A stretch of DNA of 64,000 nt, from NCBI RefSeq assembly GCF_963676685.1, contig NC_092349.1, forward strand, positions 63,390,924 through 63,454,923, read 5' to 3'. Source of the DNA: Mytilus edulis. Taxonomy: Eukaryota. Below are positions 27,127 to 50,600 of the stretch, piece after piece; position 1 is the stretch's first letter, and every line of letters starts with the position of its first letter. The notes under the pieces are model-generated. The model had not been told where the DNA came from. It saw nothing but the letters and a program-made list of their open reading frames with translations, and made no database searches. Both the position numbers and the translations under genes were made by a program.

Positions 27127-27276
27127 GATGTTGAAAGGAAACCAGGAGATAAATGGATGATCAGGGGACCAGCAGAATATGTACCACCTGTAGAGGTCGA
27201 GGTCATCATGAAGAGAACTGCAATCCCATTGGACGAAAATGAGGGAATCTATGTCAGAGATATTAAAACTGGAAAG
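27127..27276 (+). CDS. MVP: MVP paralog A exon 8
   Basis: Acceptor tttatttaag. [50 protein letters not shown], donor aag|gttggt. 150 nt. Confidence 0.85.
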
Positions 27277-27712
27277 GTTGGTGTTACACATATATATATA
27301 TATACTAACATTAAAACTTGAAATCAACAATAACAAATTCATTTTTTTTTTAAATTCAAAAGAAAGATAAAAAATCTTTTTTAAATGGAATATTTAGCAA
27401 AATGAAGTTATTTTTTGAAGTGAGGATTTTTTCATGAATTTTGTTAAACAAAAAACAACCTATTTTGTAACTGAACAATTCCGAGAATTTTGTGTATGTT
27501 ATGAAACACCGGGGATCTCTATTTTGACCAAAAATTATGAATTAAGATTTGATGTATTGTTATGTTTTTTAAAATACACTGGGTACTGTATATCATTATT
27601 GAGAGAACACACAAACCATTTAAATAGTAACATCTCCCATCATCCATCAACGTTTGATATTGTCTTTACACTAGTGAAGTTTTGACTAAGATTAACATTA
27701 TACATATTATAG

Positions 27713-27951
27713 GTCAGAGCTGTAACTGGAGAAACCTATATGTTAAACCAAGATGAGGAATTATGGGCCAAAGAACTTCCTCCTGCAGTTGAGACCCTTC
27801 TTGCCCAAGGAAAAGACCCTATGGCAGACAGGAGTGATAGGTCCAAATCAAGTGATTCATCCAAACCACGCGACAAGACTCGTGTTGTCACATTCAGAGT
27901 TCCACACAATGCTGCAGTACAGATTTATGATTATAAAGAAAAGAAAGCCAG
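27713..27951 (+). CDS. MVP: MVP paralog A exon 9
   Basis: Acceptor tattatag. [79 protein letters not shown] + ag|gtaaat. Track ORF 27740..27955. Confidence 0.9.
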
Positions 27952-28545
27952 GTAAATAGTGTTTCATACTCAGTGTATACATTCCCATATCCAACAGGCC
28001 ATGAGCAGAATCAGGCTAGTCATTTGATTCATAACAATCTATGAATATTGATTGAGTAGAAAGTACACATTGTAAACCAACTTCTTCAGGGCTTTAGTGG
28101 CCTAATGGGCTAAGAGGTTCATATACAATCATCACAATCTTTTAATTTAAGGTTGCGAGTTCAAACTCAGCGGGTTCCAAGTAAGTTAGACATCAATCTT
28201 AATCAACAAGAAATGCCAGTTTTCCTGCTGAATATCAATGGTTCTTTATGGTTACTCCTGCTTTCTCAATTAATTAAATCTGACCACTGTGGTATGGCAA
28301 ATTTTGCTGAAACTGGAATCAAATATCTAAAAAGAAACAAACAAAGTTCTTTATGTAAATCTTTGATAATTGTTGAATGATCCAGACAATTTTGGTAAAA
28401 TTTAGATTTTATTGAAAACTTATAATTCACAAATTTAATCATTACCCTTGAAATCCAACAAAATTAGTATCAAACAAGTTGTAATGATTGCACAGTAGTT
28501 AGTTACATAGAAATAATACCACTTGTAATTTTCTTTCCTTTATAG

Positions 28546-28888
28546 AGTTGTGTTTGGTCCAGAATTAGTTATGTTGGGTCCAGATGAACAATTCACACAG
28601 CTTAGTCTCTCTGGAGGTAAACCAAAGAAACAAAACGTTATCAAATCATTGTGTTTACTTCTTGGACCTGATTTCTGTACTGACATTATCACCGTAGAAA
28701 CAGCCGATCACGCTAGGTTGTCACTTCAGCTGTCATACAACTGGCACTTTGATATTAAAAATAAAGAAGATAAGACAGAGGCATCTAAGATTTTCAGTGT
28801 ACCAGATTTTGTTGGGGATGCCTGCAAGGCCATTGCCTCCCGGATTAGAGGAGCTGTGGCTCAAGTTCAGTTTGATGATTTCCACAAG
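28546..28888 (+). CDS. MVP: MVP paralog A exon 10
   Basis: Acceptor cctttatag. (R)[28 protein letters not shown]...[31 protein letters not shown], donor aag|gtatga. Track ORF 28550..28894. Confidence 0.9.
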
Positions 28889-29506
28889 GTATGATTAATA
28901 ATCTGTACAAGTGTAGATCTTAATAGACACATGCATTATCACTGAAATTTTTTTATAGGTCAAACTCATAAAATTATTGTTCTATTCATAAATATTACGC
29001 ATATAAAAATTGTTTTAGCTGTTGAGAAAATATTCATAAATATTGCGCAAATAAAAATAAATGTGTGGTATGATTGGCAATTTGAGTACTCTCCACCAGA
29101 GACAAAAGTGGCATAGAATTTAACCTTGAATTATAATTTTATGAACAAATAAACATGAGCTAAAAATTGTCTTTCAAAATTATACTAAAGAATTATTTCC
29201 AGGTTTTTCTCAAAATCCAGGGGTGGTGCTAAAAACTCCAGAGTGTAAGAGAACCACTCTGGAATATCCTTTGATGTTCCGTGAGGCATATTGATAGATA
29301 CGAAACCTTATGTTTATACATGTATCACTGCATAATATAATTTTTTCTCATCAGGGCAAGGAGTGAATCAATCCTATTAAATGAAGAAAAAATATATTAT
29401 GCCATATAGAATAAAAAATACAATCACAAATAATCAGTACAAACTGAAAATTATCTACTGTGGACAGAAAAAAAATCAAAATTAAGAAATCTGCATTATG
29501 TTACAG

Positions 29507-29718
29507 AATTCTGCTAGGATCATCAGATCTTCTGTGTTTGGTTTTGATGACAAAGACAAAGTGCGTGAAGTTTTCAAATTCCCACAAAACAACTTGGTAT
29601 TCACCAGTATTGATATCCAGTCTGTAGAACCTGTAGATCAGAGAACTAGAGATGCCTTACAGAAGTCTGTACAACTGGCCATTGAAATCACAACAAACTC
29701 ACAGGAAGCTGCTGCAAG
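29507..29718 (+). CDS. MVP: MVP paralog A exon 11
   Basis: Acceptor tatgttacag. [70 protein letters not shown] + ag|gtagat. Track ORF 29498..29722. Confidence 0.9.
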
Positions 29719-30129
29719 GTAGATAACTCTACAATAACTTCTACTGGTATCATAAAAACACACAAATTATTGTACAGGAGAAAACTGCAAAGTAGTTATG
29801 AAAACACAGTTCAATTTTAGATGACAAGGCATTTATAAAAATGAAGAAATGGTTTCATTTGCCAATGAAACAATTCTCCACCAGAGACCAAATGACATGA
29901 AGATTAACTACTATGGGTCACCATTCTGACTTCAGTACCTTATCATTATAAATGGCAATGGTCCTGCTCCCTAATGTTGGGAACCTGTACATGATTTGTT
30001 TGTTCATCTGTGCTGGTGTTTATCATTTAGATAGTTCATGCCAGAAATAAGAATTATATTGGAAGTAATCTGCAAAACACAAATTGATGAATATAAGTGA
30101 AGAGTTTTATCAATATATATTTTTTTCAG

Positions 30130-30373
30130 GCATGAAGCAGAAAGATTAGAACAGGAAGCTAAAGGAAGATTAGAGAGACAAAAGATATCAGATGAAGCAG
30201 AAGCTGAGAAATCCAGGAAGCAATTGTTAGAACTACAGGCAAACAGTGCTGCAGTAGAAAGTACTGGTCAGGCTAAAGCAGAGGCACAGTCCCGAGCTGA
30301 AGCTGCTAGGATTGAGGGTGAGGCAGCTGTAGATCAAGCCAAACTGAAATCACAGGCCATGAAGATTGAGGCA
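30130..30373 (+). CDS. MVP: MVP paralog A exon 12 (coiled-coil cap helix)
   Basis: Acceptor ttttttcag. (R)[81 protein letters not shown], donor gca|gtaagt. Track ORF 30224..30409. Confidence 0.9.
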
Positions 30374-31274
30374 GTAAGTATAAAAATGTGTTGCTCTGTC
30401 AGAATATAACATTCACTAATTATACAACTGCAAAAATTGAAAATTTTTGGTCGTATATTGGTACGACATTGTTGTCAACGTCGTCAACGTCCGAAGACAT
30501 TTAGTTTTCGCACTATAACTTTAGTATGAGTAGATAGAAATCTATGAAATTTAAAAACAAGGTTTATGACCATAAAAGGAAGGTTGAGATTGATTTTGGA
30601 AATTTTGGTCCCAACAGTTTAGGAATAAGGTGCCAAAAAGGGCCCAAATAAGCATTTTTCTTTGTTTTCGCACAATAACTTTAGTATAAGTGAACAGAAA
30701 TCTATGACATTTTAACATAAGATTTATGACCACAAAAGGAAGGTTGAGATTGATTTTGAAAATTATATACCAAAGATAATGCATACTGTGGACTAATTAT
30801 TATTCCCTGGATACTTATTTTCGTGTATTTCCTCAGGAGAGAAAAATAACAAATTTAAATGTTCAACAAAACCTCAGATTTCCTATTGGCTTGTCTAGAG
30901 ATTTTTTGAATCCATGGATATTGCTATCTATAAAAAGAAAGTATATCTCAGCATATAAATAATATAATATAATGAATATAAAGAGATTTTGAAAGATTGT
31001 CAATTACTATAATTTCAAATTGAGACGAATGGATAAGGATGTTACCACCACTGGGAACCATATGCCCTTCAACAATTAACAAAACACATAGCTTGACCTT
31101 TTAGAAAGTTTTGTCAAATATGTCAAAGAGACAACAGCCATACTGAAGAGTAGATAACAGCCAAAGGCCACCCAAACTTGTCTAACAAAATGAATTCTTG
31201 ATTATTCTCATCCAAACCTCTAGGTTATGCAAATGTTTGAGATCATATCTTCAAATTCTTTGTTGACTTTGTAG

Positions 31275-31613
31275 GAGTCCGAATTAGAAAGACTTACACA
31301 AGCCAGAGAGGCAGAACTTAAATATGTGAGAGAGCAGAACGACATGGAACTTTCAAAATCAAAAGAAATGTCAACTATCGAAACAACAAAATTCAAGAAC
31401 ATGGTGGATGCTATTGGAGCAAATACCTTGGCAACCATGGCTTCAGCTGGACCAGACCAACAGGTCCGTATGTTGCAGTCCCTTGGCCTGAAATCAACCC
31501 TTATCACAGACGGTAGTACACCAATAAATCTGTTTAATACAGCCAACGGATTGGTTGGAGGTATGATGCCAGCGAAGAGGAGCAGACGATCGGATGAGGA
31601 AGATGATGATTAA
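31275..31613 (+). CDS. MVP: MVP paralog A exon 13 incl. stop
   Basis: Acceptor ctttgtag. [112 protein letters not shown]. The motif [24 protein letters not shown] is the conserved MVP C-terminus. Track ORF 31326..31613. Confidence 0.9.
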
Positions 31614-33479
31614 AACGTTGTATTAAACTGTTGCGTAAAAACACCAAAATGAAGTTTGAAGTTTGACCTTTACTTACTTAACTTAACGATAAAATCCTTG
31701 GTGAAACTGTAATGTTTATTTTTTGTTGTACACATTTTGTCGGAATTTATTTCATTATCTTCTTTCATATTTTGTTGAATATAATTTTGTTACTTTTTGT
31801 TATATTTTTTTTTATTTGAATGGACAAAATGTTTGAGTGATAAGAAAAGATGTGTTAGTGATACTTGGAATTTTTAGTGAAAGAGGAGTGAAAATTATAT
31901 TTTGATAAAATCAATGGACCAAGTATGTGATAAAATTTCATAGTGTTTTCCTATCTTCATTGTATAGTTTTATATCATTTTCATATCCAAACTATTACTA
32001 GGAAATAATGGTTATCTTTATTTATTTTGATTATTTAATCACTTTTATATACTGTTTAAAACATACAAAGGACACAAAATGTTTGTGCAATAATTATTGT
32101 CTTACTCTTCTATGTGCTGTGAGTAAGTTATATATGTCTGCTATTTATATTATACACTGTTTACATACAGTCAGTTTTATATTGACCATTGTAAGCTTCT
32201 TAAACAATCATAACTGTAAATACCGTGATTATATATTGTTATAAATCATGTGATGTATGGTTAGTTGTAGTGGATTTGAAAAAAAAAGAAGTAAAAAACA
32301 TTTAACAGAAAAGTTAATAAAAAATTAAATATAATCTCCTTTTCTTATTTCAGTACTATTTGTTTTTCATTAGTGAACACAAAAAAAAGAAGACTTTGAA
32401 ATACCGATATAATACCCTAACAAAGAATTTACTAATCACATACTTAAAGTAACAAAATCTTTTGGACAAAAAATGAACAAAACAGAACATATTACAAGTT
32501 ATTTAGTTTGACTTCTCCCATGCATAAGACCAAATGTTAAAATTGTTTTTCTGGATACCCAAAAACCTGCTTATGACACCATATAAAAGAAAGAAGCAAC
32601 AAACACAATACATGCCACACAAATGTGGATGACTGCAAACAAATTAATTTGTGCTACTCACAAGAGTAGAAAAAAATTAATTTTCCATTCTTAACTACAT
32701 CAAATAAATTTGTGAATTGCAAAGAAAGGGTTGGCAAACCAAAGCAGTGGAGGACGATCAATGCATTTGAATGGGGATATATAGTTGGAACCCCCCTTTA
32801 TCATGCATATATGGGTTGGGACCCCCCCTTTTTTTTTTAAAATGGCTGGATTCGCCCCTGCAAAATATCTGCTAAACAATACAATGGTTTACAGTATCAT
32901 ATGAAGTGTGGCAGTTGGCTCGTTGTCAATTATATTCACCACTACACATGCTCAGAAAAGCTGACCAACTTCAACCAGTGCACATCACTAACCACATCAA
33001 TCGCAGTATACTATGTAGATTTATAGTAGAGACCATTATTTGAAGACTTTTGAAAGGAAGTTAACAAAGTTACTGTTTCAGTTAATTGTCATAGACATTC
33101 CCTGGAACTTCTATTATAGAATCTGTACCTGGGCATTATTACCAGACCCTGTAACTAGCTAATATTACCAGTTGTAGCGTATTTAAGTTTACCTTGCAAT
33201 TATTATAAGGTATTTAAAAGATACAACATCCCTGTACCTAGCTAATATTTACAGGGGATGATTGAGATAACAAACAAAATATATCAGGAACCTTGTCAGT
33301 TTTTCTTGCATGTCATTTCTTGATGCATTTTGCTATTTGGAGAATTGGTTGTTATTGACAAATTTTTATATGACCACAAAATTTTGCTGTCGTATATTGG
33401 TATGACGTTGGCCTCGTCGTCATCATCGTCCAAAGACACATTGGTTTTTAACCGGATTTTTGTGACAAAAATGTCGGTT

Positions 33480-34330
33480 ATTGATTTGGGGATGTACGGC
33501 GGGCGGGCGGGCGGGCGGGCGGGAATCAAATATTGTCCGTGCATTAACTCATGAACCGTTCAACCGAAGCTTTTAAAATTTTAATATGTTGTTACTGACA
33601 ACTAAATGAAGGTCAAGTTCAATAATGGCGATTTTTACTTTTACCGTTCAGGAGTTATGGTTCTTGAAAGATTGAAAAATGGAGTTTCCAGTCGTGTACG
33701 TGCATAAACTCATGAACCGATCAACCAAAGCTTTTAAAATTTTAATATGTTGTTACTGACAACTAAATGAAGGTCAAGTTCAATAATGGCGAGTTTGACT
33801 TTTACCGTTCAGGAGTTATGGTTCTTGAAAGATTAAAAAATGGAGTTTCCAGTCATGTCCGTGCATTAACTCAGGAACCGTTCAACCAAAGCTTTTAAAA
33901 TTTTAATATGTTGTTACTGACAACTAAATGAAGGTCAAGTTCAATAATGGCGATTTTGATTTTTACCGTTCAGGAGTTATGGTTCTTGAAAGATTGAAAA
34001 ATGGTGTTTCGAGTCGTGTCCGTGCATTTTCTCATGAACCATTCAACCAAAGCTTTTGAAATTTATATATGTTGTTACTGATGACAAAATAGAGGTCAAG
34101 TTCAATAATGACGATTTTGACTTTTACCGTTCAGGAGTTATGGTTCTTGAAAGATCGTAAAATGGCGTTTCCATTCACGTTGTTGCATTTACTCATGAAC
34201 CATTCAATCTAAGCTTTTCAAATTTTAATATGTTGATACTGATGACAAAATGGAGGTCAAATTTGATATTGGCGATTTTAACTTCACATTCATCAGTAAT
34301 GGTTCTTGTGATTTTGCCAGGACACAAATA
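33480..34330. repeat. (GGGC)6 microsatellite followed by an about 155-bp tandem array (about 5 units: ..catgaaccgttcaaccaaagcttttaaaattttaatatgttgttactgacaactaaatgaaggtcaagttcaataatggcgattttgacttttaccgttcaggagttatggttcttgaaagattgaaaaatgg..)
   Basis: Direct tandem copies visible. Confidence 0.8.
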
Positions 34331-36938
34331 AATGTTAATAAATCCGGTTTGCTGTCGTTGTGACAGCCTCTTGTTGCACTATAACTTTAGTTTAAGTAAA
34401 TATAAATCTATAAAATTTAAACACAAGGTTTATGACCACAAAAGAAGGTTGGGATTGATTTTGGGGGTTTTGGTCCCAACAGTTTAGGAATAAGGGGCCA
34501 AAAACTGGCCCAAATAAGCATTTTTCTTGGTTTTCGCACAAAAACTTTAATATAAGGAAGTAGAAATCTATGAAATTTAAACAAGGTTTATGAACACAAA
34601 AGAAAGGTTAGAATTGATTTTGGGAGTTTTGGTCCCAACAGTTTAGGAATTAGGGGCCAAAAAGGGCCCAAATAAGCATTTTTCTTGGTTTTCGCACCAT
34701 AACTTTAGTATAAACTAATAGAAATCTATGAAATTTAAACACAAGGTTTATGACCATAAAAAGAAGGTTGGGATTGATTATGGGAGTTTTGGTCCCCACA
34801 GTTTAGGAAATTAAACTTTGTTTGATTTCATTAAAAATTGAATAATTGGGGTTATTTGATATGCTGAATCTAACTGTGAATGTAGATTCTTAATTTTTGG
34901 TCCCGTTTTCAAATTGGTCTACATTAAGGTCCAAAGGGTCCAAAATTAAACTTAGTTTGATTTTAACAAAAATTGAATCCTGGGGTTCTTTGATATGCTG
35001 AATCTAAAAATGTACTTAGATTCTTTTTTATTGGCCCAGTTTTCATTTGGTACAAATTGGGGTAGTCCGAGATTACTCTGATGTCCAACGGCTGTTTTGC
35101 CAGACAAGCTAGGGCCGTGGGACTTCAGAGCTCGTCCCATATCAAAAAGTTGATATTTGCCCACCCAAAATAGATGCACTGCTTCGTCGTTCTGGTGTCG
35201 ATTGAGGGCCTCAGAATTATATAAATCGGGCATCAATCTATTCATTTTTATACAACCGCAAAAATTGAAAATTTTTTGGTCGTATATTGATGTCACGTTG
35301 GCGTCGTCGTCTGCGTCGTCGTCATCGTCGTCGTCCGAATACTTTTAGTTTTCGCACTCTAACTTTAGTTTAAGTAATTTGAAATCAATGAAATTTAAAC
35401 ACAAGGTTTATGACCACAAAATGAAGGTTGGGATTGATTTTGGGAGTTGAGGTCCCAACAGTTAAGGAATTAGGGGCAAAAAAGGGGCCCAAATAAGCAT
35501 TATTCTTGGTTTTCGCACCATAACTTTAGTATAAATAAATAGAAATCTATGAAATTAAAACACAAGGTGTATGACCATAAAAGGAAGGTTGGGTTTGATT
35601 TTGAGAGTTTTGGTCCCAACAGTTTAGGAATAAGGGGCCCAAAGGGTCCAAAATTAAACTTAGTTTGATTTTAACAAAAATTGAATCCTTGGGGTTCTTT
35701 GATATGCTGAATCTAAAAATGTACTTAGATTTTTTATTATTGGCCCAGTTTTCAAGTTGGTCCAAATCGGGGTCCAAAATTAAACTTTGTTTGATTTCAT
35801 CAAAAATTGAATAATTGGGGTTCTTTGATATGCAAAATCTAACTGTGTATGTAGATTCTTAATTTTTGGTCCCGTTTTCAAATTGGTCTACATTAAAGTC
35901 CAAAGTGTCCAAAATTAAACTAAGTTTGATTTTAACAAAAATTGAATTTTTGGGCTTCTTTGATATGCTGAATCTAAACATGTACTTAGATTTTTGATTA
36001 TGGGCCCAGTTTTCAAGTTGGTCTAAATCAGGATCCAAAATTATTATATTAAGTATTGTGCAATAGCAAGAAATTTTCAATTGCACAGTATTCAGCAATA
36101 GCAAGAAATCTTCAGTTGCACAGTATTCAGCAATAGCAAGAAATTTTCAATTGTACAGTATTGCGCTATAGCACGAAATCTTCAATTGCACACTATTGTG
36201 CAATAGCAAGTATTTTCAATTGCACAGTATTGCGCAATAGCAAGACATATCTAATTGCACAATATTGCGCAATAGCAAGAAATTTTCAACTGGAGTTATC
36301 TTTCTTTGTCAAGAATAGTAGTTGAATCGACTTAAATCATTGTTTTACACAATATACAATGTATATTCACTTTTACTACCAACTGATAAATTAAAACAAT
36401 CTTTACCATTCAGTGATAACAAGCACTTTTTTTACATTTTAATATTTTATGATGTATTTAAATGAGTGGTTATTGTTGCAAACTCCATTAGAAATTTGAA
36501 TTGAGATCAGTTTTGGAATAAGGGAAAGGGGATGTGAAAAAAAAATAGGGGTGGGGGTGGAGAGAGAATCAATTTTTCTCATTCATTTCAGATTTCATAA
36601 ATAGAAAAAAAATTCTTCAAACAAGTTTTTGAGAGGATTAATATTCAACAGCATAGTTAATTGCTCAAAGGGAAAAAAAATCAGTTAATTAGACCACATT
36701 CATTCTGTGTCAGAAACCTATGCTGTGTCAACTATTTAATCACAATCCAAATTTAGAGCTGAATCCATCTTGAATGCTGTGTCCATACTTACCCCAACCG
36801 TTCAGGGTTCAACCTCTGAGGTCGTATAAAGCTGCACCCTGCGGAGCATCTGATTTTAAATGAATATCAATAAAAAGTTGTTAGTTATAGTACATGTATC
36901 AAATTTAGGTAAAATCATTGGACTTCCCAGTGTATATT

Positions 36939-38603
36939 TCATTCAGATGATAAATTAAATTTTGTCAAATATGTGTCTTTGCCACTGACATCACAAATGA
37001 AACCTGAAGATTCACAATGTTTCAAACAAATACAAGTAGGATTCTCCAGTCCATCACTGAGCAGTACTTTACTCTCCTCTCCATCTTTTGATATTACTAT
37101 TATTCTATGAGTGTTAATGTCTGCTACAGAAATGTTACCATAAGTATCTGTACAAAGTCCATGAGGTCCTGATAAATCCTGTGTATATTGCCAGATATGT
37201 TTACCTGATTGATCAACACAGTAAACTGCATTACCACTGTAGTCATTATAGATTACTCTGTCATTACAGTAAACAAGGTGCCACATGTTTGTTTTACTCT
37301 GAACTTGTATTGACTTCAGTGTATTTCCTTCTAAGTCTATTAAACGGATTTCATCATCATTCAAACCTACAACAAGAGAATCATCTGATGATGATAATCC
37401 CCAGCAAAGTGTGTCTAATGAGATAACTTTGGTTACTGTTTCATTCTCCATATTGAAGATCTTAATGGCTTTCTCATAAGGATAAGTTATGGCAATAGTG
37501 TTCTGATTGATCTGTGTAACACTCCAAGCATTACCAGGTATAGATAGCTTTTTCAGTAGTTTGCCATCAGGAGTAAGTAGGTTAACACCCCATTCCACTA
37601 TTATAAGTCTTCCATCCATCAGACAGGTCATGTCACTTATACTTCCCATGTTGATCTCTATCTTATTTTCAATGTTCATGGTCATGCTGTTTATGTTTGA
37701 TTGTTTTCGTGATTCTACTTGTGCTTCCCTTCTCACACTTGTTTCTTTCTTCAAATCCATATCTGTTTTAACAACAGTTAATTCTCCTAAGGATTCTAAC
37801 TTTTTTATTATCTTTTCTGTCTCATTATTTTGCTCCATTTTGATGTGAAATTCTTTTGCCCTGTCGTCTTTGTCCAGATTATCTATGTATCGTTGACATT
37901 GATGTACATGTTGTTCAATCTGATGTACCCCTAGAAATGATTGGAGTTTGGAGGCATGTGGTATGACGGTATGTAACTGGTCTTGCATTTTCTTTAAGTT
38001 TTTCTATTTTTCTCCAATTTCAGCAATTAAATCTTTGGCTTTTGATTTTTGTTCATTTAGGATGGTATCTGCCTCTTTGCATATCCTCTTCTCTAGGTGG
38101 GTTAAATGTTTATCTATTTCATTGCGAATTTTCACAATTAATTTTTTAATGCTTTCATATTCTTCTTCTCCTCTTTTAATGTTTTGTGATTTGTTATTTA
38201 CAATTTCATCTAAGAGTTGTAAGATGGAGTTGATATCTTTCTCTACGGATTCTTTAGATTTTTCAATCTTGGTTTTCTCCACAACACTAGCTAAACTTTT
38301 TATTTCGGTACATTTTGAATGACTATTGGAAATACATTTATCACAGCAAGGCATCAAATGACTGGGGCAATACAAGTTGAGCTGTTGACCATGTTTGTCA
38401 CATTCCGTTTTGATAGCTTTGATGGAGGGTTTATAACTTTTAATATCAATAGTCTTATGATCACATGTTCCTTTGGATCTTTTGTGATGACCAGAACATG
38501 TTGAGCACAATCCTTCATCACAGTTGTAACACCAGATGACAGCTTTAGTGTTCACTTTTCCTTCTATACAAGGTCCACATGGAATAGGTTTACTTGATGC
38601 CAT
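36939..38603 (-). pseudogene. Intronless B-box1/B-box2/coiled-coil/NHL-repeat (TRIM-NHL-like, RING-less) gene interrupted by one in-frame TAG (38004-38006). Possible pseudogene or nonsense allele.
   Basis: Track ORFs 38004..38603 (199 aa) and 36939..37988 (349 aa) are in the same frame, separated only by TAG plus 5 codons (..AEIGEK*KNLKKMQDQ..). No GT..AG pair is present that could splice the stop out. The N-terminus has two B-box Cys/His patterns. The centre is a long heptad coiled coil. The C-terminus has NHL-like repeats (..GPHGLCTDTYGNISVADINTHRIIVISKDGE..). A ttttcag acceptor sits directly 5' of the ATG, so an upstream exon (UTR or RING) is possible. Confidence 0.55.
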
Positions 38604-41600
38604 GATCTGAAAATATCCATGATAAAAGTTATATTTGGCCTAAATTTATGTACAAAACAATGAAGGAAAAACAAATATAATGTAGAACAAACTAAAACCA
38701 CTGCTTGACTACCAGCTCCTGACTTCGGACAAGCACGTGTTGGATTCTTCAATGGTTGTCGTTAGTTGCTGTATATTGTATTTGATTATCATGTATTCAC
38801 CCTGTTGTATTGGTAACTTCTTGTGCTTCTTGTTTATAACATACAACAAAATTAATTTGAATATATAATTCTCAATCACACAGGTAAAAATGGTGGATGA
38901 CATTGTTGATTATAATAGAGTTAGTTCGGTAAGGGCAATATTTGACCCTGATTATAAAGTTCAATGTTACAAGACAAAAAATGTTTTAAGTTGACCTTAG
39001 AGACATGTGAGAAAGTTAAATAGAACTATTTTTGTCAAGGTTTAATTCTAACACGTTGATTTTTACATCCCAAAAAGGTTAAGATAAGAGATTTTGCTGA
39101 AAATCTGCTGGATTTCAACTAAATTAAGGACCAGGAAACATAGAGTGCAGGCGTTGACAAACTAAATATTCAAATAACACATGAAATGCATTATTTTAAA
39201 AGATCTTTGTTGTCGATGTATGAGCTCTATGTTTCCTGTCCGATAATCTATGGAAATTTGCCTATTTTGATTGGTTTTCGTGGAAATATAATATGAAAAC
39301 AACTTGTGACGTCATAATAAAACTCAGAAACGTAAATTTTCAACAAAATGGTTTATTTCTTATCTAATCACTGTCTTATCTATGATTTATTGTGATACTG
39401 CTCAATAAATCCAAACTTGAAATTTACGCTAAAAAAGGGGGCTATTTTAGGACCTTACCGAACCTACTCCTTTGAACAATAAGGCATTTTTTTTTACAAT
39501 GTATGGACATAGGTTACATACACATAACTCTGCATTTTATACTTAGTCATTAAATAGAATAACTAATAATTTAACCAAATACCTGTTGATTTTGTTATGA
39601 CAAAAGTTTAGTTCTCTATCACCATTTATTCAATGTCAACCAACCAGGAAGGTATTATGGACATGTCAATAACTGATTCAGCTAATTATTAAATATTTAA
39701 ATGACATAGAAAATAACTGACCCAAAAAATAAAAGTTCAAAATAAACTTTTGTCATAAAGACATCAGTGGGATTTCAATTTTCTATTAGAGAAAAATGGT
39801 GTATGCTATTAAACAGATCTTTATAACAATGTTTCTAAATACAGAAAAAAATCTTTTGGAAGAATCTGGATATATTTTGTCTCTCATCTTATTTGTATGA
39901 TAACAAAATATTTACTATTTTGTATTATAGTGTGATTTTGCTCTGATTTTAACCTTGTCTATATGTGGAATCAATGTTTTCTATGCAATAACATTTGTTT
40001 CATTTTAAGAATCATCCTATCAATACATATTTCAATGAGCTTCATTAATAAGACTAAATATTTTTTTGTTAAATGACTATATGTTCTATGATATACCGAA
40101 TCTAACCGTGTATTTAGATTCTTAATTTTGGTCCCGTTTTCAAATTGGTCTACATTAAGGTCCAAAGGGTCCAAAATTAAACTTAGTTTGATTTTAACAA
40201 AAATTGAATTATTGGGGTTCTTTGATATGCTGAATCTAAACATATACTTAGTGTTTTTATTATGGGCCCAGTTTCAAGTTGGTCCAAATCGAGGTCGAAA
40301 ATTAAATTAACTTCGTTTGATTTCAACAAAAATTCAATAAATGGGGTTCTTCAATATGCTTAATCTAACCATGTATTTAGATTTTTAATATTTAGGACTG
40401 GTTATCAAATTGGCTCACATTGAGGTCTAAAGGGTCCAAAATTGAACTTTATTTGATTTTATCAAACATTGAATTCTTGGGTTTTTTTGATTTGATGAAT
40501 CTAACCATGTATTTAGATTTTGGATATTGGAATACCACAAAGGGATGGTAAGAATTGTCTTTGGGAGTTATGGCTCAAACCGTTAAGGAATAAGGTACAA
40601 AAGGGGGGGGAGGGTTTCCAGGTTAATGGAGAATTACTTAAGTATAAAACATAATTTAAAAGCAGTATAAGGTTGGTAATTGAAACTCATTTTAATAGCT
40701 CACCTAAACTGCTCTTAAATTATGTATGTTGGAAATTTGCCAAAAGCTTTGTTATTAATAAATTCCATTGGAAATTTGCCAAAAACTTAAGTTTAATGAA
40801 CTTTATTGAAAATTTGCCAATATAAAATGTTGCATTGGAGTTATCTTTTTTTGTCCAGAATAGTAGTCAAATCAATTTAAATCATGACTGTATGACATTT
40901 TATATTTTATGATGTATTTAAATGAGTAGTTATTGTTGAAAACTCCATAAGAAATTTAAATTGAGATCATTTTTGGAATTAGGGAAAGGGGGAAGTGAAA
41001 AAAAATTGGTGGGGTTCAAATTTTTCTATTTCAGATTTCAGAAATGAAAAAAAGAAAATTTCTTCAAATATCAAAGGATTAATAATCAACAGCTTAGTGA
41101 ATTGCTCAAAAGCAAAAAAAAAAAAAACATTTTAAGTTCAATAGACCAAATTCATTCTGTGTCAGAAACCGATGCTGTGTCATCTTTTTAATCACAATCC
41201 AAATTAAGAGCTGTATCCAGTTTGAATGTTGTGTCCATACTAGCCCCAACTGTTCAGGGTTCGACCTCTGCGGTCGTATAATGCTGCGGAGCATCTGGCT
41301 TGATTGGCTATCGTAGAGTGTTCCTGATAACCACTATTGAATTGGACAATTTGCAATGGGAATCATCATTTGTATGAACTGACTATAATTGGTATGCCGC
41401 TTTTCGTTTACAAAAGAATGAGCTTCATATTTTGAGCAAGCAACAAACTAGCAAATAATAAATCAACCAAGCGAATTTGACCCACAATAAACCAAGGTTG
41501 ACTACATTTTTGCGTTTTACTTTTAATACTAGTTTTAGATACCTCTTTTGCTGAACTGTTGTTTGCCGAAGGTATCAACAATACCTATCCTTCCTTGGTC

Positions 41601-42025
41601 ATGGTTTTACGAAATATATTTTTATAGAGAAAGTAACTCTAGATTGTTGATTATACTGTTATTCGTTCTTGCTTGTTTCTGGTTATACAGACATCCGATT
41701 CCTTTTCCTAGATTAACTTTACTTTTGGTACTTTTTTTTGTTTTATCGGCTCTTCAACGTTCAATAATAATTGTATACAGTTATTGCATGAAGTTCGAAC
41801 TTGCATGTTTGTTACGTAGGTACGTCACTTTGTGATGTCCTGCAGTTATATTTCTGTCGTTGATAAAAGATGTTCGATGTTGTTCTGTGGTTTGCATGAT
41901 TATATACTGTATATATTGTGTGTTTGTGTTGTTTGTCACATGAACTGTAGAACGACGCTAGATTAAAACTGACGTGGAAATGTAACACCCCGTCACCGAA
42001 AGCTTCATTTTATGAAGCCCATGTG

Positions 42026-42112
42026 GTCGTGTGGTCTAGTGGAACGGCTACAATGCAGGCGATTTGGTGTCACGACATCTTAGTAGCATGGGTTCGAATC
42101 CCGGCGAGGGAA
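42026..42112 (+). ncRNA. tRNA-Glu-like pol III element (box A TGGTCTAGTGG, box B GGTTCGAATCC). Degenerate tRNA pseudogene, SINE head or other small pol III RNA.
   Basis: The D-arm (GTGGTCTAGTGG) and the 3' end (GGTTCGAATCCCGG-CGAGGGAA) closely resemble tRNA-Glu. The 5' acceptor half does not pair with the 3' half, and the box A to box B spacing is about 48 nt, too long for a canonical tRNA. The first T4 run downstream is at about 42153. Confidence 0.4.
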
Positions 42113-44088
42113 GAACAAAAACAATTGCGAAAGCAAGTTTAAAGATCTAACATTTTGGGTTGATGTTTAGACGAGTTGTATATTATATTAACTTTATTAT
42201 ATTTATTACAATAACTTAATTATTGTATTAACTTTGGCATACAAGCAGTAGGTTTGGCTAGACATGCAACTAGATTTAACCCACTTTTTTCTTGAAATGT
42301 CCCATACCAGGTCAGAAATATGGCAATTGTTATTTAAAAATAGTTCGTTTCTATGTATCTTGGCGTTTGTTTTTGTTGCACTGGAGTGTTTTAGCTCTTT
42401 TGGCTTCCTCTTATAGCTGATGTGTTTCCTAGGTTTTAGATTGTTACCCGGATTTGTCTTATCTCAATCGAGTTGTGACTTTTGAACGGTATACTACTGT
42501 TGCCTTTATTTTTTTTTAAAAGGTTTTCGACTTTCTAATATTTTGGTCTCGAGCATCATTGAAGAAACTTAACTGTCTAAATACGAGCATCTGGTAAATT
42601 AAAATTGGAACCATTAATGTTACTACAACTGGCTCGATACCTCTGCTGGTGGACCATAATGCCATAAAATTATCCCCAATTTAGTTTTCATAACTTCTGT
42701 ATTAGCCTGAACTTACGGATATTCTTCTACTAAATTTTACAGTTTTTCGCTTTTCGAAATCATTATAAAATCAGGAATGTTTCTTGTGTGGGTTTGTGTA
42801 TACTGTTTGTTCATTTTTTGTGTTATCGAACAAGCAACCTTGGTATTAAGTTTTGAATTTTTAAAAGTTATAGTTTTGGCCTCGGGCATCACTTAGAGAC
42901 ATGTACTGTTGAAATTCGTATCTTAAGCAATATAATTGATACCCTTTATGTTGTTACTACCAATGTTTTTATTATTTCATGTTTGCCGGTCGAACGTTAG
43001 AATTACTGTTCATCCAATCATGGACACTCGTACATTATGTTTAATCCGAACGATTAGCAAAGGAAACAAGACGTTGTCCAAAGTTTTAATACTTGTCTCA
43101 TTATGGTTATTTTTACATGACACATGTATTTCTACCAAACTTTAATAGTTTCATCGTGCATGATAACACTTTTTCGAAGCACGTTTTTTAACTATCATTT
43201 GTTCTTTATTTTGTAAAATCTCATCACGGCATGTAATCATATTCGAGGATCATAGACCTGCAGAGTCAACGGCGACGCCTTATACATTCCATTATGTTAT
43301 CACTTGAGTGGTATGAATTCATTATTGAACGTAAAAGATGTAAATGAATAACAAATTCCACATTATAAAATTATGAATTCATGATATTTCATTTCATTGC
43401 TAATATGTTTTTGTAACGTTTGTGAATTTTGCACCAAAACAAACGTTCCAGAGAATTTGCCGAATAATTAAGACCTTGTTTGGAAGGGTTTATATTTCGT
43501 GTTCCCACTATGCCAGTGACAAACGCGACAAGATAAATTATTAATAAAAAATTTATTGTTAAATAACATATTCCAACATAACTCATGGACATTGATCTCT
43601 GAAAAAATGAGTAATACACAATGGTGTGATAAAGAAAATTATAAAATACAAAAGAAATGTATTGCACATATACTAAATTTTGATAAATTAGTGTATAAAA
43701 GGTTATCATAGATTAAATACCTTAATACATGGTAACAAACAAACCCTATCAAATATACAGAACGTACATATTCAACAACTTTTAAAGTATACAAAACATT
43801 TTACACTCTGACGCTATTCCCTTCACATCTAAACAATAAACAACTGTGCACGCCTCTATCACACTAGGTATCAAAGTCTATAAAGTGTATACAACGTCAT
43901 CAGAAAATAATAACAATAAATACACAAAAATATACTATGGTATACTTCAATTGTTAATAATGCTAGTAACAATAAGATGTTACTTTCTCAACTGGTCATT
44001 TTTTTCCAAAACAAAGTACTCACTCCACATTGTTTCGCAAGCACAAAAGTCAATAACTAATGTTAAGAAGAAAAGCACATTCCAATAT

Positions 44089-44433
44089 TTATTCATAACA
44101 ATCATCGTCGTCGTCATGGCGTTTCCCCCTCTTTGCTGGCATCATACCTCCAATCAATCCATTAGCTGTATTAAACAGATTAATTGGTGTGCTACCGTCC
44201 GTGATGAGGGTTGATTTCAGGCCGAGGGACTGCAACATACGGACCTGTTGGTCTGGTCCAGCTGAAGCCATGGTTGCTAAGGTATTTGCTCCAATAGCAT
44301 CCACCATGTTCTTGAACTTTGTTGTTTCGATGGCTGACATTTCTCTAGATTTGCTTAGTTCCATTTCATCTTGTTCTCGAACATATTTTAATTCTGCCTC
44401 TCTGGCTTGTGTAAGTCTTTCCAATTCAGATTC
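44089..44433 (-). CDS. MVP: MVP paralog B exon 13 incl. stop
   Basis: Acceptor cttattttag. [114 protein letters not shown]. Track ORF 44089..44424. AATAAA overlaps the stop. Confidence 0.9.
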
Positions 44434-44807
44434 CTAAAATAAGATTTAAAATATTTTACCAACATTATCTACAATAATACAACATATCAGCTAAGTTGAG
44501 TTCTATAAATAGATAGCATATAATTTTGGTGAAACATACCATTATATGTCAACACCGTAAAGATAATTTCAGATAATAACAGGATAAAAACAGAAACATG
44601 GGACACATACAAACTTGGAAACAGCATCATTTAAAATTCTACGATATACTGAAATTATTTCAAATATTCTTCGAGTGCGAGCAATTCTACACACCTTTAT
44701 CAAATGCAAACAGTGAAATGGTAAAAAAGCAAGGTTAAAGCATATGACCTATAAACCACTTATGCCATCAAATTTCATTGAAAAATTACATAAACCCTGC
44801 TACTTAC

Positions 44808-45051
44808 TGATTCAATCTTCATGGCTTGTGATTTTAGTTTAGCTTGGTCTACAGCTGCCTCGCCTTCAATCCTTGAGGCTTCAGCTCGGGACTGTGCCTC
44901 TGCCTTAGCCTGGCCAGTACTTTCTACTGCAGCACTGTTTGCTTGTAATTCTAACAATTGTTTCCTGGATTTTTCAGCCTCTGCTTCATCTGAAATCTTC
45001 TGTCTTTCTAATCTTCCTTTAGCTTCTTGTTCTAATCTCTCTGCTTCATGT
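44808..45051 (-). CDS. MVP: MVP paralog B exon 12
   Basis: Acceptor ccattctag. (R)[81 protein letters not shown], donor tca|gtaagt. Track ORF 44775..45104. 244 nt as in A. Confidence 0.9.
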
Positions 45052-45313
45052 CTAGAATGGGAAAACAAACGTTGATTAACAATGATGAACTTAATCTGAA
45101 TCAATCAACATTTCATATGCCTTTGTGTCACTTACCATGCTTGTACGACATGGTTAATGCATATGATTGTATTGATCAAATATGGTTCAGCTTCTTGCGA
45201 GTTAGTCGTGACTAAATACCCTGGTTTGCAAAATTAACTACATTGAAGCGGCTTCCTCTGAGTTAAATGTGCATTCGATGGCTAGCAGTAAAGATTTCTA
45301 TAGAGTAACTCAC

Positions 45314-45525
45314 CTTGCAGTAGCTTCTTGTGAGTTTGTGGTAATTTCAATGGCCAGCTGTACAGATTTTTGTAAGGCATCTCTTGTTCTCTGATCTACA
45401 GGCTCAACAGATTGAATATCAATACTGGTGAATACCAAATTGTTTTGTGGAAATCTGAAAGTCCCTCGAACTTTTCCTTTCTCATCAAAACCAAATACTG
45501 ATGATCTGATGATTCTTGCCGAATT
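45314..45525 (-). CDS. MVP: MVP paralog B exon 11
   Basis: Acceptor cattttag. [70 protein letters not shown] + ag|gtgagt. Hand-translated. 212 nt as in A. Confidence 0.85.
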
Positions 45526-45780
45526 CTAAAATGAAAGATTGTCTATCTTTTAGCTGACTTTTTTTATATTTCTACGTTTTCACAAATACATGGCTTTTAA
45601 ACATTTTGAAGATGAAGGTAAATCCAGAAAAGCGATTAGAACACACCAAATTTATAAAGTCAAAAACTGATGCATTTAAGAAAAGGTTTCAGGTTTCCAT
45701 CATCTTTGGGTTAGTGTATGCCCTCACTCGAATTTCATATCTTTAAACCAAACTATTTCCTGTATAAAGATAATGCTAAC

Positions 45781-46123
45781 CTTATGGAAGTCATCAAACT
45801 GTACTTGTGCCACGGCCCCTCTGACTCGGGAAGCTATAGCCTTGCAGGCATCTCCAATGAAATCTGGTACACTGAAAATCTTAGCAGCCTCGACTTTATC
45901 CTCTTTGCTTTCAATTTCAAAGTGCCAGTTGTACGACAGCTGTAAAGACAGTCTTGCATGGTCAGATGTTTCTACTGTAATGATGTCAGTACTGAAGTCT
46001 GGTCCCAGAAACAAACATAGTGATTTAATGACATTGTTTTTCTTTGGTTTGCCACCAGAAAGGCTAAGCTTTGTAAATTGTTCATCAGGACCTAATAAAA
46101 CCAACTCGGGACCAAAAACAACT
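45781..46123 (-). CDS. MVP: MVP paralog B exon 10
   Basis: Acceptor ctttacag. (R)[114 protein letters not shown], donor aag|gttagc. Track ORF 45724..46104. Confidence 0.9.
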
Positions 46124-46359
46124 CTGTAAAGAAAAGCAAAATTGAAGATAAGTTAAGATTTTATCACATGATTTACATATTAGTATCTTGTTAGTACATT
46201 GTATTGCTCTAATAAACAGACTTATCAAACCCCTTTCACCAATTGAAATAAGGTACAATTAAGAACAGTATTATGATGACATTATCAATTCTAAACATAA
46301 AACTTAACGCTTAAATTAAATCTCACTTTAAGTACCAATAACACATTTTATCAATATAC

Positions 46360-46601
46360 CTTGCTTTCTTTTCTTTATAATCGTAAATCTGTACAGCAGC
46401 ATTGTGTGGAACTCGGAAAGTGATCACACGTGTTTTGTCACGTGGTTTAGCAGCCTCACTTCCTGGTTTTGGTCCTCTCTCACCAAAGGCCTGTGGGTTT
46501 TTAGCCTCAGCCAGGAGAGTCTCGACTGCAGGAGGAAGTTCTTTAGCCCATAGTTCCTCATCCTGATTTAACATGTATGTCTCTCCAGTTACAGCTCTGA
46601 C
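46360..46601 (-). CDS. MVP: MVP paralog B exon 9
   Basis: Acceptor cattttag. [80 protein letters not shown] + ag|gtatat. Track ORF 46323..46574. 242 nt versus 239 in A. Confidence 0.9.
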
Positions 46602-46855
46602 CTAAAATGTGTATTTTAAAATATTTGATATCACAAGGTAACAAATATATATGTTCAATTCACAACTCTATTCAGTTAATATATTCTTATAGATCACCGA
46701 AAATTACATTTGATGTGTTAAATGAATTTGCATTTTACACAAAGATGTTTGATAGAATTTCATTACATAATATGAGACTATCAACTGACTGACATCTTTA
46801 AGAAAAATACACATGTATATGATTATTTGTGGAAAATAGAAACTGTATGACATAC

Positions 46856-47005
46856 CTTTCCAGTTTTAATACATCTGACATAGATACCCTCATTTTCATC
46901 TAGTGGTAGTGCAGTTCTCTTCATGGTCACCTCAACCTCCACTGGTGGAACGTATTCTGCTGGTCCCCGAATCATCCATTTATCTCCTGGTTTTCGTTCT
47001 ATCTT
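46856..47005 (-). CDS. MVP: MVP paralog B exon 8 (no micro-exon 7 equivalent located)
   Basis: Acceptor ttatttccag. [50 protein letters not shown], donor aag|gtatgt. Track ORF 46823..47062. Confidence 0.9.
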
Positions 47006-47504
47006 CTGGAAATAAAAGAACATGTCAATAGAAATATTATCGTGTAAAACAAAGCAAAACAATCATATCAATAGTAATTTGGATTTCATACCAAAGACAC
47101 CTTCAATAGGAAATAATTGTCAAACTGTTTTAAACAGGTGGAACTAGTTTGCATTTTACATTTACCACAGATAAAAGGGTTCCCAGAATAACTATTAACC
47201 TGAAATGTTTGAGCAAAAACAGTATCATTCAGGCTTACATAAAGGTCATTTTTATAAATTTCCTGTTTACAAAATTTTGAATTTTTCAAAAAACTAAGGA
47301 TTTTCTTATCCCAGGCATAGATTACCTTAGCCGTATTTGGCATAACTTTTCGAATTTTTGATCCTCAATGCTCTTCAACTTTGTACTTGTTTGGCTTTAT
47401 AAATATTTTGATATGAGCGTCACTGATGAGTCTTATGTAACCGAAACGCGCGTCTGGCGTACTAAATTATAATCCTGGTACCTTTGATAACTATTTGCAA
47501 TAAC

Positions 47505-47650
47505 AGTATGACAACCAGGTGCTCCGCAGGGCGCAGCTTTATACGACCGCAGAGGTCGATCCCTGAACAGTTGGGGCAGGTATGGACAAAAAATTTAAGC
47601 GTGATACAGCTCTGAATTTGGATTGTGATCAAATTTTTGACATTATATGG
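47505..47650 (+). mobile_element. SINE-like about 180-bp element (ccagatgctccgcagggcg.agctttatacgaccgcagaggttgaaccctgaacagttggggcaagtatggacac...) with a box-B-like GGTTGAACCC. Copies are at 48555-48720(+), 52315-52500(+), 1741-1925(-), 25043-25210(-), 36690-36865(-) and 41140-41300(-).
   Basis: Seven copies at about 85-95% identity in both orientations. Three (36690, 41140, 48555) are fused to an about 250-bp A-rich module (..atgatgtatttaaatgag..attcaacagcatagtgaattgctcaaaag), giving a composite about 450-bp element (36440-36865, 40890-41300, 48555-48960). Confidence 0.6.
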
Positions 47651-50600
47651 GTTTTTTACACAAAACAAATGTCAAGCCATTCCATCATCATCATCATCTC
47701 AATTCAAATTTTAAATGGACTTTGCAACCATAAACACTCATTTAAATACATCAGAAAATTATAAAAATAGAAAATGACATGATAGTCATGTCTGGCAAAT
47801 TTCCAACATACATTATCTAAAAACATTTTAGAAAAGATAAGGGAAAAAAGCTTCATCAGCAACATTTTATATTGGCAAATTTCCAATGAAGTTATTTACA
47901 TAAAGTTATTGGCAAATAAAAATAGAAAATGACATCATAGTCATATCTGGCAAATTTCCAACATATATTATCTAAAAATATTTTAGATAAGATAAGGAAA
48001 AAAAAACTTCATTAGCAACATTTTATATTGGCAAATTTCCAATGAAGTTATTTACATAAAGTTATAGGCAAATAAAAATAGAAAATGACATCATAGTCAT
48101 GTCTGGCAAATGTCCAACATACATTATCTAAAAACATTTTAGATAAGATAAGGAAAAAAAGCTTCATCAGCAACATTTTATATTGGCAAATTTCCAATGA
48201 AGTTATTTACATAAAGTTATTGGCAAATTTCCAACATATATTATCAACTACTACTCTATACAAAGAAAGATAACTCCAATTGAAAATTAATTGCTATTAC
48301 ACAATATTGTGCAATTAGATATTTCTTGCTATTGTGCAATACTGTGCAATTGAAAATTTCTTGCTATTGCACAATACTTGATATGGAATCCTGATTTGGA
48401 CCAACTTGAAAACTGGACCCATAATCAAAAATCAAAGTACATGTTTAGATAAAGCATATCAAATAAGCCAAAGAATTTAATTTTTGTTAAAATCAAACTT
48501 AGTTTAATTTTGGACCCCCATTTGGACCAACTTGAAAACTAGGCCAATAATTAACCAGATGCTCCGCAGGGCGTAGCTTTATACGACCGCAGAGGTTGAA
48601 CCCTGAACGGTTGGGGCAAGTATGGACACAACATTCAAGCTGGATTCAGCTCTAAATTTGGATTGTGATTAAATAGTTGACACAGCATAGGTTTCTGACA
48701 CAGAATGAATGTGTTCTAATGAACTTAAAATTTTTGTTTTCTCTTAGAGCAATTCACTATGCTGTTGAATATTAATCCTCTCAAAAAAATGTTTGAAGAA
48801 ATTTTCTTTTTTATTTATGAAATTTCAAATGAGAAAAATTGAACCCAATTTTTTTAATCACATCCCCCTTTCCTTTATTCCAAAACTAATCTCAATTAAA
48901 ATTTCTAATGGAGTTTGCAACAATAACTACTCATTTAAATACATCATAAAATATTAAGATGTAAAAAAACTGCTTGTTATCACTGAATGGTAAAGATTAT
49001 TTTAATTTATCAGTTGGTAGTAAAAAGTGAATATACATTGTATATTGTATATAACAAAGATTTAAGTTGATTCTGGACAAAGAAAGATAACTCCAATTAA
49101 AAAAAATCTTGCTATTGCACAATATTTTGCAATTAGATATTTCTTGCTTACTATTCTGGACAAAGAAAGATAACTCTAATTAAAAAAAAAATTTGCTATT
49201 TCACAATATTGTGCAATTAAATATTTCTTGCCATTGCGCAATACTGTGCAATTGAAAAGACTTGCTATTGCACAATACTTAATATAATAATTTTAGATCC
49301 TGATTTGGACCAACTTGAAAAGTGGGCCCATAATAAAAAATCTAAGAACATTTTTGGATTCAGCATATCAAAGAACCCCAAGATTTCAATTTTTGTTAAA
49401 ATCAGACTAAGTTTAATTTTGGACCCTTTGGACTTGATGGTAGACCAATTTGAAAACAGCACCAAAAATGAAGAATCTACATACACAGTAAGATTTGGTA
49501 TATCAAAGAACCCCATTTATTCAATTTTTGATGAAATCAAACAAAGTTTAATTTTGGACCCCGATTTGGACCAACTTGAAAACTGGGCCAATAATCAAGA
49601 ATCTAAGTACATTTTTAGATTCAGCATATCAAAGAACCTAACTGATTCATTTTTTGTCAAAATCAAACTAAGTTTAATTTTGGACCCTTTGGACCTTAAT
49701 GTAGACCAATTTGAAAACGGGACCAAAAGTTAAGAATCTACATACACAGTCATGACAGTTAGATTCGGCATATCAAAGAACCCCAATTATTCAATTTTGA
49801 TGAAATCAAACAAAGTTTAATTTTGGACCCTTTGGGCCCCTTATTCTGTTGGGACCAAAACTCCCAAAATCAATACAAACCTTCCTTTTATGGTCATAAA
49901 CCTTGTGTTTAAATTTCATAGATTTCTATTTACTTAAACTAAAGTTATTGTGCGAAAACCATGAATAATGCTTATTTGGGCCCTTTTTTGGCCCCTAATT
50001 CCTAAACTGTTGAAACCAAAACTCCCAAAATCAATCCCAACCGTTCTTTTGTGGTCATAAACCTTGTGTCAAAATTTCATAGATTTCTATTAACTTAAAC
50101 TAAAGTTATAGTGCGAAAACAAAGAAAATGCTTATTTGGGCCCTTTTTGGCCCCTAATTCCTAAAATGTTGGGACCAAAACTCCCAAAATCAATACCAAC
50201 CTTCCTTTTGTGGTCATAAACCTTGTGTTAAAATTTCATAGATTTCCATTCACTTTTACTAAAGTTAGAGTGCGAAAAGTTTTTCAAATTTTGCGGTCGT
50301 ATAAAAATCTAAGTACATTTTTAAATTCAGCATATCAAAGAACCCCAAGGATTCAATTTTTGTTAAAATCAAACTAAGTTTAATTTTGGACCCTTTGGAC
50401 CTTAATGTAGACCAATTTGAAAACGGGACCAAAAATTAAGAATCTACATACATAGTTAGATTCGGCATATCAAAGAACCCCAATTATTCAATTTTTGATG
50501 AAATCACACAAAGTTCAATTTTGGACCCTTTGGGCCCCTTATTCCTAAACTGTTGGAACCAAAACTCCCAAAATCAAACCCAACCTTCCTTTTGTGGTCA

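Follow-up and report, generated by a model that had tools for sequence, protein, structure and literature searches.

A long reading frame resembling a TRIM-NHL gene in the mussel Mytilus edulis is interrupted by a single in-frame TAG, raising the question of whether the locus is one gene, two genes, or a gene that has been lost. It lies in a stretch of 64,000 nucleotides of contig NC_092349.1 (assembly GCF_963676685.1), referred to here as the window, from whose first nucleotide all unattributed coordinates are counted. The initial annotation, which left the strand unstated, described a continuous intronless frame and offered four options: a very young pseudogene of a massively expanded bivalve family, a segregating nonsense allele, a sequencing error, or a candidate for read-through.

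A coding region interrupted once

Translation of the minus strand gives a coding region at 36939-38603 (38603→36939) of 555 codons, including an internal TAG and a terminal TGA; the start ATG is at 38603-38601 and the TGA at 36941-36939. Read on the plus strand, the interval contains stops throughout, and the gene is not on that strand. The only internal stop is the TAG at 38006-38004, which is codon 200 and has the context GAA AAA TAG AAA AAC. The next ATG is Met206, with five codons (KNLKK) in between, the frame is identical on both sides of the TAG, and there are no frameshifts. Stops make up 7.6% of random codons at the base composition of the window, and the chance of finding open runs of these lengths is 1.5e-7 for 199 codons and 7e-13 for 354 codons. 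The N-terminal ORF (38007-38603, or 38004-38603 with its stop) encodes 199 aa, and the downstream ORF from Met206 (36939-37988) encodes 349 aa followed by its stop.

The disrupted region as a whole is a single coding exon with 84% identity over 554 aa to intact paralogs that are also single-exon. The paralog DNA was read at two loci (L001 and L002) of the M. edulis assembly GCA_905397895.1, both with single-exon coding sequences, and positions 5970-7747 of L001 align to 38634-36851 of the window at 89% identity. A paralog-homologous 3' flank, the start of the 3'UTR, thus occupies 36851-36938 in the nucleotide alignment, and an interspersed repeat then begins at ~36858. An intron that could remove the stop was considered and rejected, since the paralogs align without gaps across the site and their coding sequences are single exons. 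The description of an intronless 555-codon frame that is broken by one TAG, resumes five codons later at the ATG of codon 206, carries no other defect (there being no frameshift, and the zinc ligands described below being kept) and has no intron through which the stop might be lost therefore stands.

The gene lies, as had been stated, between two MVP (major vault protein) genes, with exons recognized on both sides from the Vault repeat and MVP shoulder domains of Pfam. The two are convergent, at 19733-31611 on the plus strand and 44100-55597 on the minus strand, and the gene sits between their 3' ends. Only the exons of the two MVP copies match one another (nucleotide identity of 80-94%; the centres of symmetry fall at 37.2-37.9 kb), which argues for an old duplicate pair; an assembly fold-back was considered and rejected because the similarity is confined to exons. 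The Vault-repeat exon at 20723-21076 and its counterpart at 54086-54463 encode almost identical protein, whereas the other MVP exons are at ~80-83%, and this suggests either local gene conversion or uneven constraint.

Several other features of the window were observed. A high-copy interspersed and partly tandem repeat is present at ~960-1350 and at 23.2-25.2, 34.4-36.9, 40.0-41.3 and 47.5-53.2 kb. The same repeat family is found beside the paralogs (L001 9560-12130 and L002 11370-13210) and abuts the 3' flank of the gene at ~36858; it carries short ORFs such as '...FRFSISKNPK.SIFVKIKLSLILDPLD...' and has no Pfam match. At 5112-5918 on the minus strand there is a 268-aa ORF that is rich in charged residues and resembles a coiled-coil exon of another gene; it has no Pfam family above threshold.

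Annotation and family membership

Both halves of the frame are present in RefSeq. By exact look-up the N-terminal ORF is identical to the 199-aa M. edulis protein XP_071177803.1, named 'E3 ubiquitin-protein ligase TRIM39-like', and the downstream ORF to the 349-aa M. edulis protein XP_071177802.1, named 'uncharacterized protein'; a protein search likewise returned a 349-aa M. edulis protein (P0101) that is 100% identical to the downstream ORF. The window is therefore nuclear DNA of the blue mussel, and the locus is already in the public annotation, as two fragment models; we infer that it was the nonsense codon that gave rise to the two adjacent models, and that they do not represent two real genes. 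The reconstructed intact version, with Q200, is absent from a collection of ~15 billion proteins searched by exact look-up.

When joined across the stop, the frame matches more than 120 full-length Mytilus proteins at 63-85% identity with E-values down to 0, from M. edulis, M. galloprovincialis, M. trossulus, M. californianus and M. coruscus, so that membership in a massively expanded family is confirmed for Mytilus. Except for a few shorter fragments and a single chimera of 683 aa, the matched proteins have lengths of 545-587 aa, and they carry varied names: 'TRIM2/3', 'TRIM56', 'TRIM71-like', 'tripartite motif-containing protein 2-like' and 'B box-type domain-containing protein'. For close comparison we used 24 full-length paralogs, the nearest to the gene at 78-85% identity, drawn from three species (M. 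edulis, M. galloprovincialis and M. trossulus). A bivalve-expanded orthogroup of 'B-box-type zinc finger' proteins has been listed previously (PMC8382680), and we found no paper that deals with the mussel B-box/coiled-coil/NHL family. The gene adds a new member, disrupted by a nonsense codon, to a mussel family that was already known and is heavily expanded.

No close relative in the same position was found. The protein search gave no full-length match above 85% identity in any other Mytilus annotation, and tblastn of the 64-kb window revealed no paralog besides the gene itself. A 116-aa diagnostic query spanning the stop retrieved only seven candidates, none of them orthologous, which with so few retrieved is a weak negative. 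No positional ortholog was found in the other Mytilus annotations, and neither the M. galloprovincialis protein P0023 nor the M. trossulus protein P0012 is encoded beside MVP. With no positional ortholog and best matches at ~85%, the history of this copy is reconstructed from its paralogs only. These observations would be compatible with a dispensable locus that is variable in presence and absence.

Other members of the family were seen in various states. Three of them (P0122, P0123 and P0126, from M. edulis and M. galloprovincialis annotations) are short and decayed, with an internal deletion and N- or C-terminal truncations, and P0023 (L003 11572-11660) has an apparent frameshift near its C-terminus; gene decay thus seems common in the family. 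The 683-aa M. edulis protein P0099 is an annotation chimera, in which the N-terminal ~120 residues are the propeller end of a neighbour and are followed by the complete next member, a fusion that implies tandem head-to-tail paralogs at the locus of P0099. P0012 (L004, M. trossulus CM071709.1, 57.69-57.71 Mb) is nested in an intron of a gene for a BCDHK/HATPase_c kinase, which lies on the other strand. Members of the family are both scattered and clustered.

Domain architecture

The encoded protein has two B-boxes, a long predicted coiled coil and a C-terminal propeller, and analyses with Pfam, AlphaFold2 (AF2) and Foldseek support the order B-box/B-box/coiled-coil/NHL that had been proposed. 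B-box 1 (residues 9-51; 38451-38579, minus strand) scores 25.7 bits against PF22586 (ANCHR-like_BBOX), just under the cut-off of 27; its ligands C9, C12, C25, C28, C33, C36, H40 and H49 are conserved across the paralogs, and it is poorly modelled by AF2, with low confidence. B-box 2 (residues 66-98; 38310-38408, minus strand) exceeds the PF00643 (zf-B_box) cut-off of 24.1 with a score of 27.1 bits, matching best over residues 66-96, and is modelled with moderate confidence (pLDDT 73-79); its ligands C68, H71, C79, H82, C86, C87, C90, H95 and C98 are also conserved. All of these zinc-ligand cysteines and histidines, which are invariant or nearly so in the paralogs, are kept in the disrupted gene. 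The protein thus has the B-box zinc fingers, one or two in number, that characterize the TRIM/RBCC family.

A long helical region, a putative coiled coil, follows (residues ~104-270; 37794-38294, minus strand), delimited by AF2 helices, and it is this region that is cut by the TAG. The model of the 199-aa N-terminal fragment contains helices at residues 104-111 and 117-198, the latter reaching the truncation point, with a block-mean pLDDT of 61 at residues 111-120 and 81-97 from residue 121. Further helices are predicted in the C-terminal fragment at its residues 14-65 (~219-270 of the full frame) with low confidence. Because the long helix runs to the truncation point, the TAG cuts it roughly mid-way.

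The C-terminal part of the protein (residues ~305-554; 36942-37691, minus strand) is predicted to form a six-bladed NHL-type beta-propeller by AF2, Foldseek and a PDB sequence search. The AF2 model of the 349-aa fragment, made with 38 sequences, contains 24 strands at fragment residues ~100-349, which fits six four-stranded blades, with block-mean pLDDT values of 84-96 that exceed 90 except in the last ~20 residues. The best PDB matches in Foldseek are the NHL domains of TRIM2, TRIM3, Drosophila Thin and Mei-P26, with TM-scores of 0.69-0.75 (on the target) and rmsd of 3.0-3.3 Å. By sequence the top PDB match is the YWTD propeller of LRP4 (1.8e-11), with the NHL domain of PknD at 2.9e-9 and TRIM3, TRIM71 and TRIM2 at 1e-6 to 1e-5. 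The Pfam propeller scores of this copy are below threshold (NHL 17.5 against 20, SGL 24.3 against 26.3); over 26 aligned family sequences a B-box was found in 25 and NHL in 18, with a best E-value of 8e-8. Between the coiled coil and the NHL region no filamin/Ig domain was matched by Pfam, and the linker is disordered in the AF2 model. A C-terminal six-bladed propeller of NHL repeats, as in the TRIM-NHL (class VII) proteins, is therefore present, on the evidence of both the structural model and the sequence matches.

The upstream region and the absence of a RING domain

The initial annotation had pointed out a splice acceptor abutting the ATG and proposed that an upstream exon might encode the missing RING. 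The acceptor is indeed there: tggatattttcag, at 38619-38607 on the minus strand, ends 3 nt before the start codon and is followed by ATC ATG, and its ttt(t/c)cag is retained in both L001 and L002. The co-linear upstream homology extends ~1.3 kb, to roughly 39933, and the region from 38604 to 39933 on the minus strand, at 80-85% identity to the paralogs, is presumed to comprise a 5'UTR intron, a non-coding exon 1 and the promoter. The duplication that produced this copy took place at the DNA level and covered ~3.1 kb (39933-36851), including the intron upstream of the ATG. Approximately 85 bp of the intron just upstream of the acceptor, present in both L001 and L002, is absent from this copy (at 38644-38649).

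The suggestion of a RING-encoding exon found no support. All 24 close paralogs start at MASSKPIPCGPC, in gene models from four independent annotations. No Pfam RING family was matched in the protein at E<=1, and none was found in the 25 other aligned family sequences at E<=0.01. The longer members P0034, P0099, P0065 and P0086 also have no RING by Pfam; P0034 is lengthened by an insertion within the protein, and P0099 by its chimeric joining to the C-terminal end of an adjacent paralog. Finally, a regular expression for the C3HC4 consensus, which would miss a RING split across several small exons, found none in any frame of 38604-44100 or 31600-36938. The shared start and the lack of either a RING in the paralogs or a RING consensus nearby suggest that the upstream exon is non-coding, and the simplest reading of the intron before the ATG is that it lies in the 5'UTR. 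On this evidence, the B-box/coiled-coil/NHL family of Mytilus is RING-less.

Origin and age of the premature stop

The comparison with the closest paralogs that the initial annotation had recommended identifies the ancestral codon. Column 200 of the alignment is Gln in 24/24 of these proteins, within the conserved motif ...(E/G)(K/N)QK(N/I)L(K/E/R)KM..., and both paralog DNAs read AAA CAG AAA AAC where this copy reads AAA TAG AAA AAC. The stop thus derives from a CAG (Gln) by one C→T transition, which is not at a CpG, and the T is flanked by two A5 runs. The gene accordingly carries a disabling mutation relative to its functional relatives, CAG>TAG, of the type by which pseudogenes are recognized.

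Constraint appears to have been maintained until recently. The dN/dS of the gene against two paralogs is 0.45-0.48, compared with 0.465 for the intact pair, and dS to the nearest paralogs is 0.186. In 3/3 comparisons the N-terminal half has a lower dN/dS (0.26-0.35) than the propeller half (0.57-0.69). Private codon changes, counted by three-way parsimony among this gene and two intact paralogs, give a synonymous to nonsynonymous ratio of 22:36 in its lineage and 35:62 in the intact paralogs pooled (Fisher p=0.86), and the corresponding counts downstream of the stop are 12:24 and 17:31 (p=1.0). Only two alignment gap positions are private to the gene. Apart from the stop it has nine private replacements at sites invariant in the 24 paralogs (V61I, F155L, K173R, E185Q, N306S, I327T, I425L, L444M and K513E), mostly conservative, and this number is in the range of the 7-15 such replacements in intact paralogs with similar terminal branch length. 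Neither dN/dS, nor the private changes, nor those at conserved sites reveal relaxed constraint relative to the intact paralogs, as expected if inactivation is very recent; a gene that still functions would show the same.

A bound on the time for which the frame could have drifted is given by the proportion of possible substitutions in the ORF that create stops, which is 4.4%-5.8%. The probability of acquiring no more than one stop is 0.05-0.12 at 0.05 neutral substitutions per site and 0.01-0.04 at 0.07, so neutral drift of the open frame amounts to at most about 0.05-0.07 substitutions per site, a figure that ignores indels, which would tighten it. Compared with the dS of 0.186, this bound indicates that selection continued to act on the gene through most of the period after its divergence from the nearest paralogs, and that the stop is recent.

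Interpretation of the disrupted gene

We consider it very probable that the locus is a recently inactivated copy of a RING-less B-box1/B-box2/coiled-coil/NHL gene, whether an incipient pseudogene or a null allele present in the reference animal. One C>T transition changed the family-invariant CAG of Gln200 to TAG in the middle of the predicted coiled-coil helix, such that translation would end at codon 200 and yield at most a 199-aa stub containing the B-boxes and half of the coiled coil, and without the propeller. The propeller is the presumed target-binding domain, and with its loss from the product the allele would be functionally null for the presumed recognition function of the family, with or without nonsense-mediated decay (NMD). 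Re-initiation at Met206 after an ORF of 200 codons is not expected to be efficient in eukaryotes. Because the single coding exon contains the stop, no exon junction lies downstream, and the mRNA could escape EJC-dependent NMD; NMD triggered by a long 3'UTR might still occur. Two of the four options initially put forward, a young pseudogene and a segregating nonsense allele, are consistent with this interpretation, and the other two, sequencing error and read-through, are disfavoured for the reasons that follow.

If the TAG were an assembly or base-calling error, the true genome would have CAG and the gene would be intact. One base separates the TAG from the family-invariant CAG, the rest of the ORF looks fully functional, and the T lies between two A5 runs; however, the difference is a C>T substitution and not a change in homopolymer length, with the same frame on either side. 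Moreover, every paralog examined has Q at this position, and the two whose DNA was read encode it with CAG; paralog reads mis-mapped during polishing would therefore restore a C and not create a T. In a species as polymorphic as Mytilus, real variants generally far outnumber the substitution errors of consensus assemblies made from modern long reads, and we regard an error as quite unlikely. Read-through or recoding of the UAG to give the full-length protein, whether by near-cognate suppression or by A-to-I editing of UAG to UGG, is the least probable of the explanations we have weighed, even though the downstream frame is open for 354 codons and looks conserved, and adenines precede the stop. 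The context is UAG-A, and a purine at the +4 position favours efficient termination. No known leaky motif of the CARYYA or CUAG type is present at the stop, and the 128 nt around and downstream of it fold less stably than shuffled sequences (z=+1.56, with 191/200 shuffles folding at least as well). In all 24 paralogs the codon at this position specifies an ordinary Gln, which argues against a recoding site at the level of the family.

Two further explanations suppose that the interrupted locus is still in use. It could be functionally split into a 199-aa B-box/half-coiled-coil protein and a 349-aa half-coiled-coil/NHL protein translated from Met206 or from its own transcript; both products are in RefSeq, both halves still look constrained, and an ATG is located five codons past the stop. 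Yet none of the 24 close paralogs is split at codon 200, the stop bisects a long predicted coiled-coil helix, a separate promoter is not evident, and the constraint signal is fully explained by the recency of the stop. Eukaryotic re-initiation after a 200-codon ORF is inefficient, and such a division of the gene seems less likely again than an error in the assembly. It is also conceivable, with a probability that we place slightly lower still, that the nonsense allele is tolerated or used, with an mRNA that escapes EJC-dependent NMD and a stable 199-aa stub that could co-assemble with intact paralogs through its coiled coil and act as a dominant-negative modulator. In that case the allele would not be a dead gene but a variant with a regulatory role, in a gene family of putative immune type.

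Relationship to other TRIM-NHL proteins

The closest relatives are the RING-less Mytilus paralogs (for example P0001 and P0004 in M. edulis GCA_905397895.1), which are ~552-560 aa long, start at MASSKPIPCGPC and have the same domain order. As in the disrupted gene, their coding sequence occupies a single exon, an acceptor precedes the ATG and the upstream region is co-linear; they are 78-85% identical to it in protein and 89% in DNA. The copy in the window differs in having TAG for CAG, and in standing alone between two MVP genes rather than beside family members.

Drosophila Brat is a TRIM-NHL protein without a RING, and consists of two B-boxes, a coiled coil and a C-terminal six-bladed NHL propeller; it is a conserved, single-copy developmental RNA-binding regulator. 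The mussel family shares this RING-less architecture. The Brat NHL domain (PDB 1q7f, 4zlr and 5ex7) is matched by sequence at E ~2e-3, and overall similarity between Brat and the mussel family is very low. Unlike the single-copy Brat, the mussel family has more than 100 fast-diverging copies, with the faster evolution in the propeller half (dN/dS 0.57-0.69, against 0.26-0.35 in the B-box half). Among the vertebrate class VII TRIM-NHL proteins (TRIM2, TRIM3, TRIM32 and TRIM71), TRIM2 and TRIM3 have the NHL domains onto which the propeller model fits best (TM 0.72, rmsd 3.0-3.3 Å), and in the mussel gene, as in these proteins, B-box and putative coiled-coil regions precede the propeller. In contrast to them, the mussel gene has no RING and so no canonical E2-recruiting ligase module; it also has no filamin/Ig domain, and its propeller is only 14-17% identical to those of the vertebrate proteins. 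The filamin/Ig domain is found in TRIM2, TRIM3 and TRIM71, and not in all class VII members.

The locus also resembles the young unitary pseudogenes or null alleles of expanded mussel families, in belonging to a large lineage-specific family with other decayed copies. As might be expected of a mussel gene that varies in presence and absence, it has no close ortholog among the annotated genes of the other Mytilus genomes. Gene families that vary in presence and absence are described for the M. galloprovincialis pan-genome (PMC7653742), and a search of that paper found no mention of TRIM, B-box or NHL genes.

Implications

XP_071177803.1 and XP_071177802.1 are best read as one nonsense-disrupted gene, which is mainly a matter of annotation hygiene. 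Since the mussel B-box/NHL proteins have no RING, E3 ligase activity cannot be assumed for them. The locus illustrates, on a small scale, the turnover of a mussel B-box/NHL family that is large and evolves fast; should the TAG prove to be a segregating null allele, the locus would join the cases of functional presence/absence variation already described for mussels.
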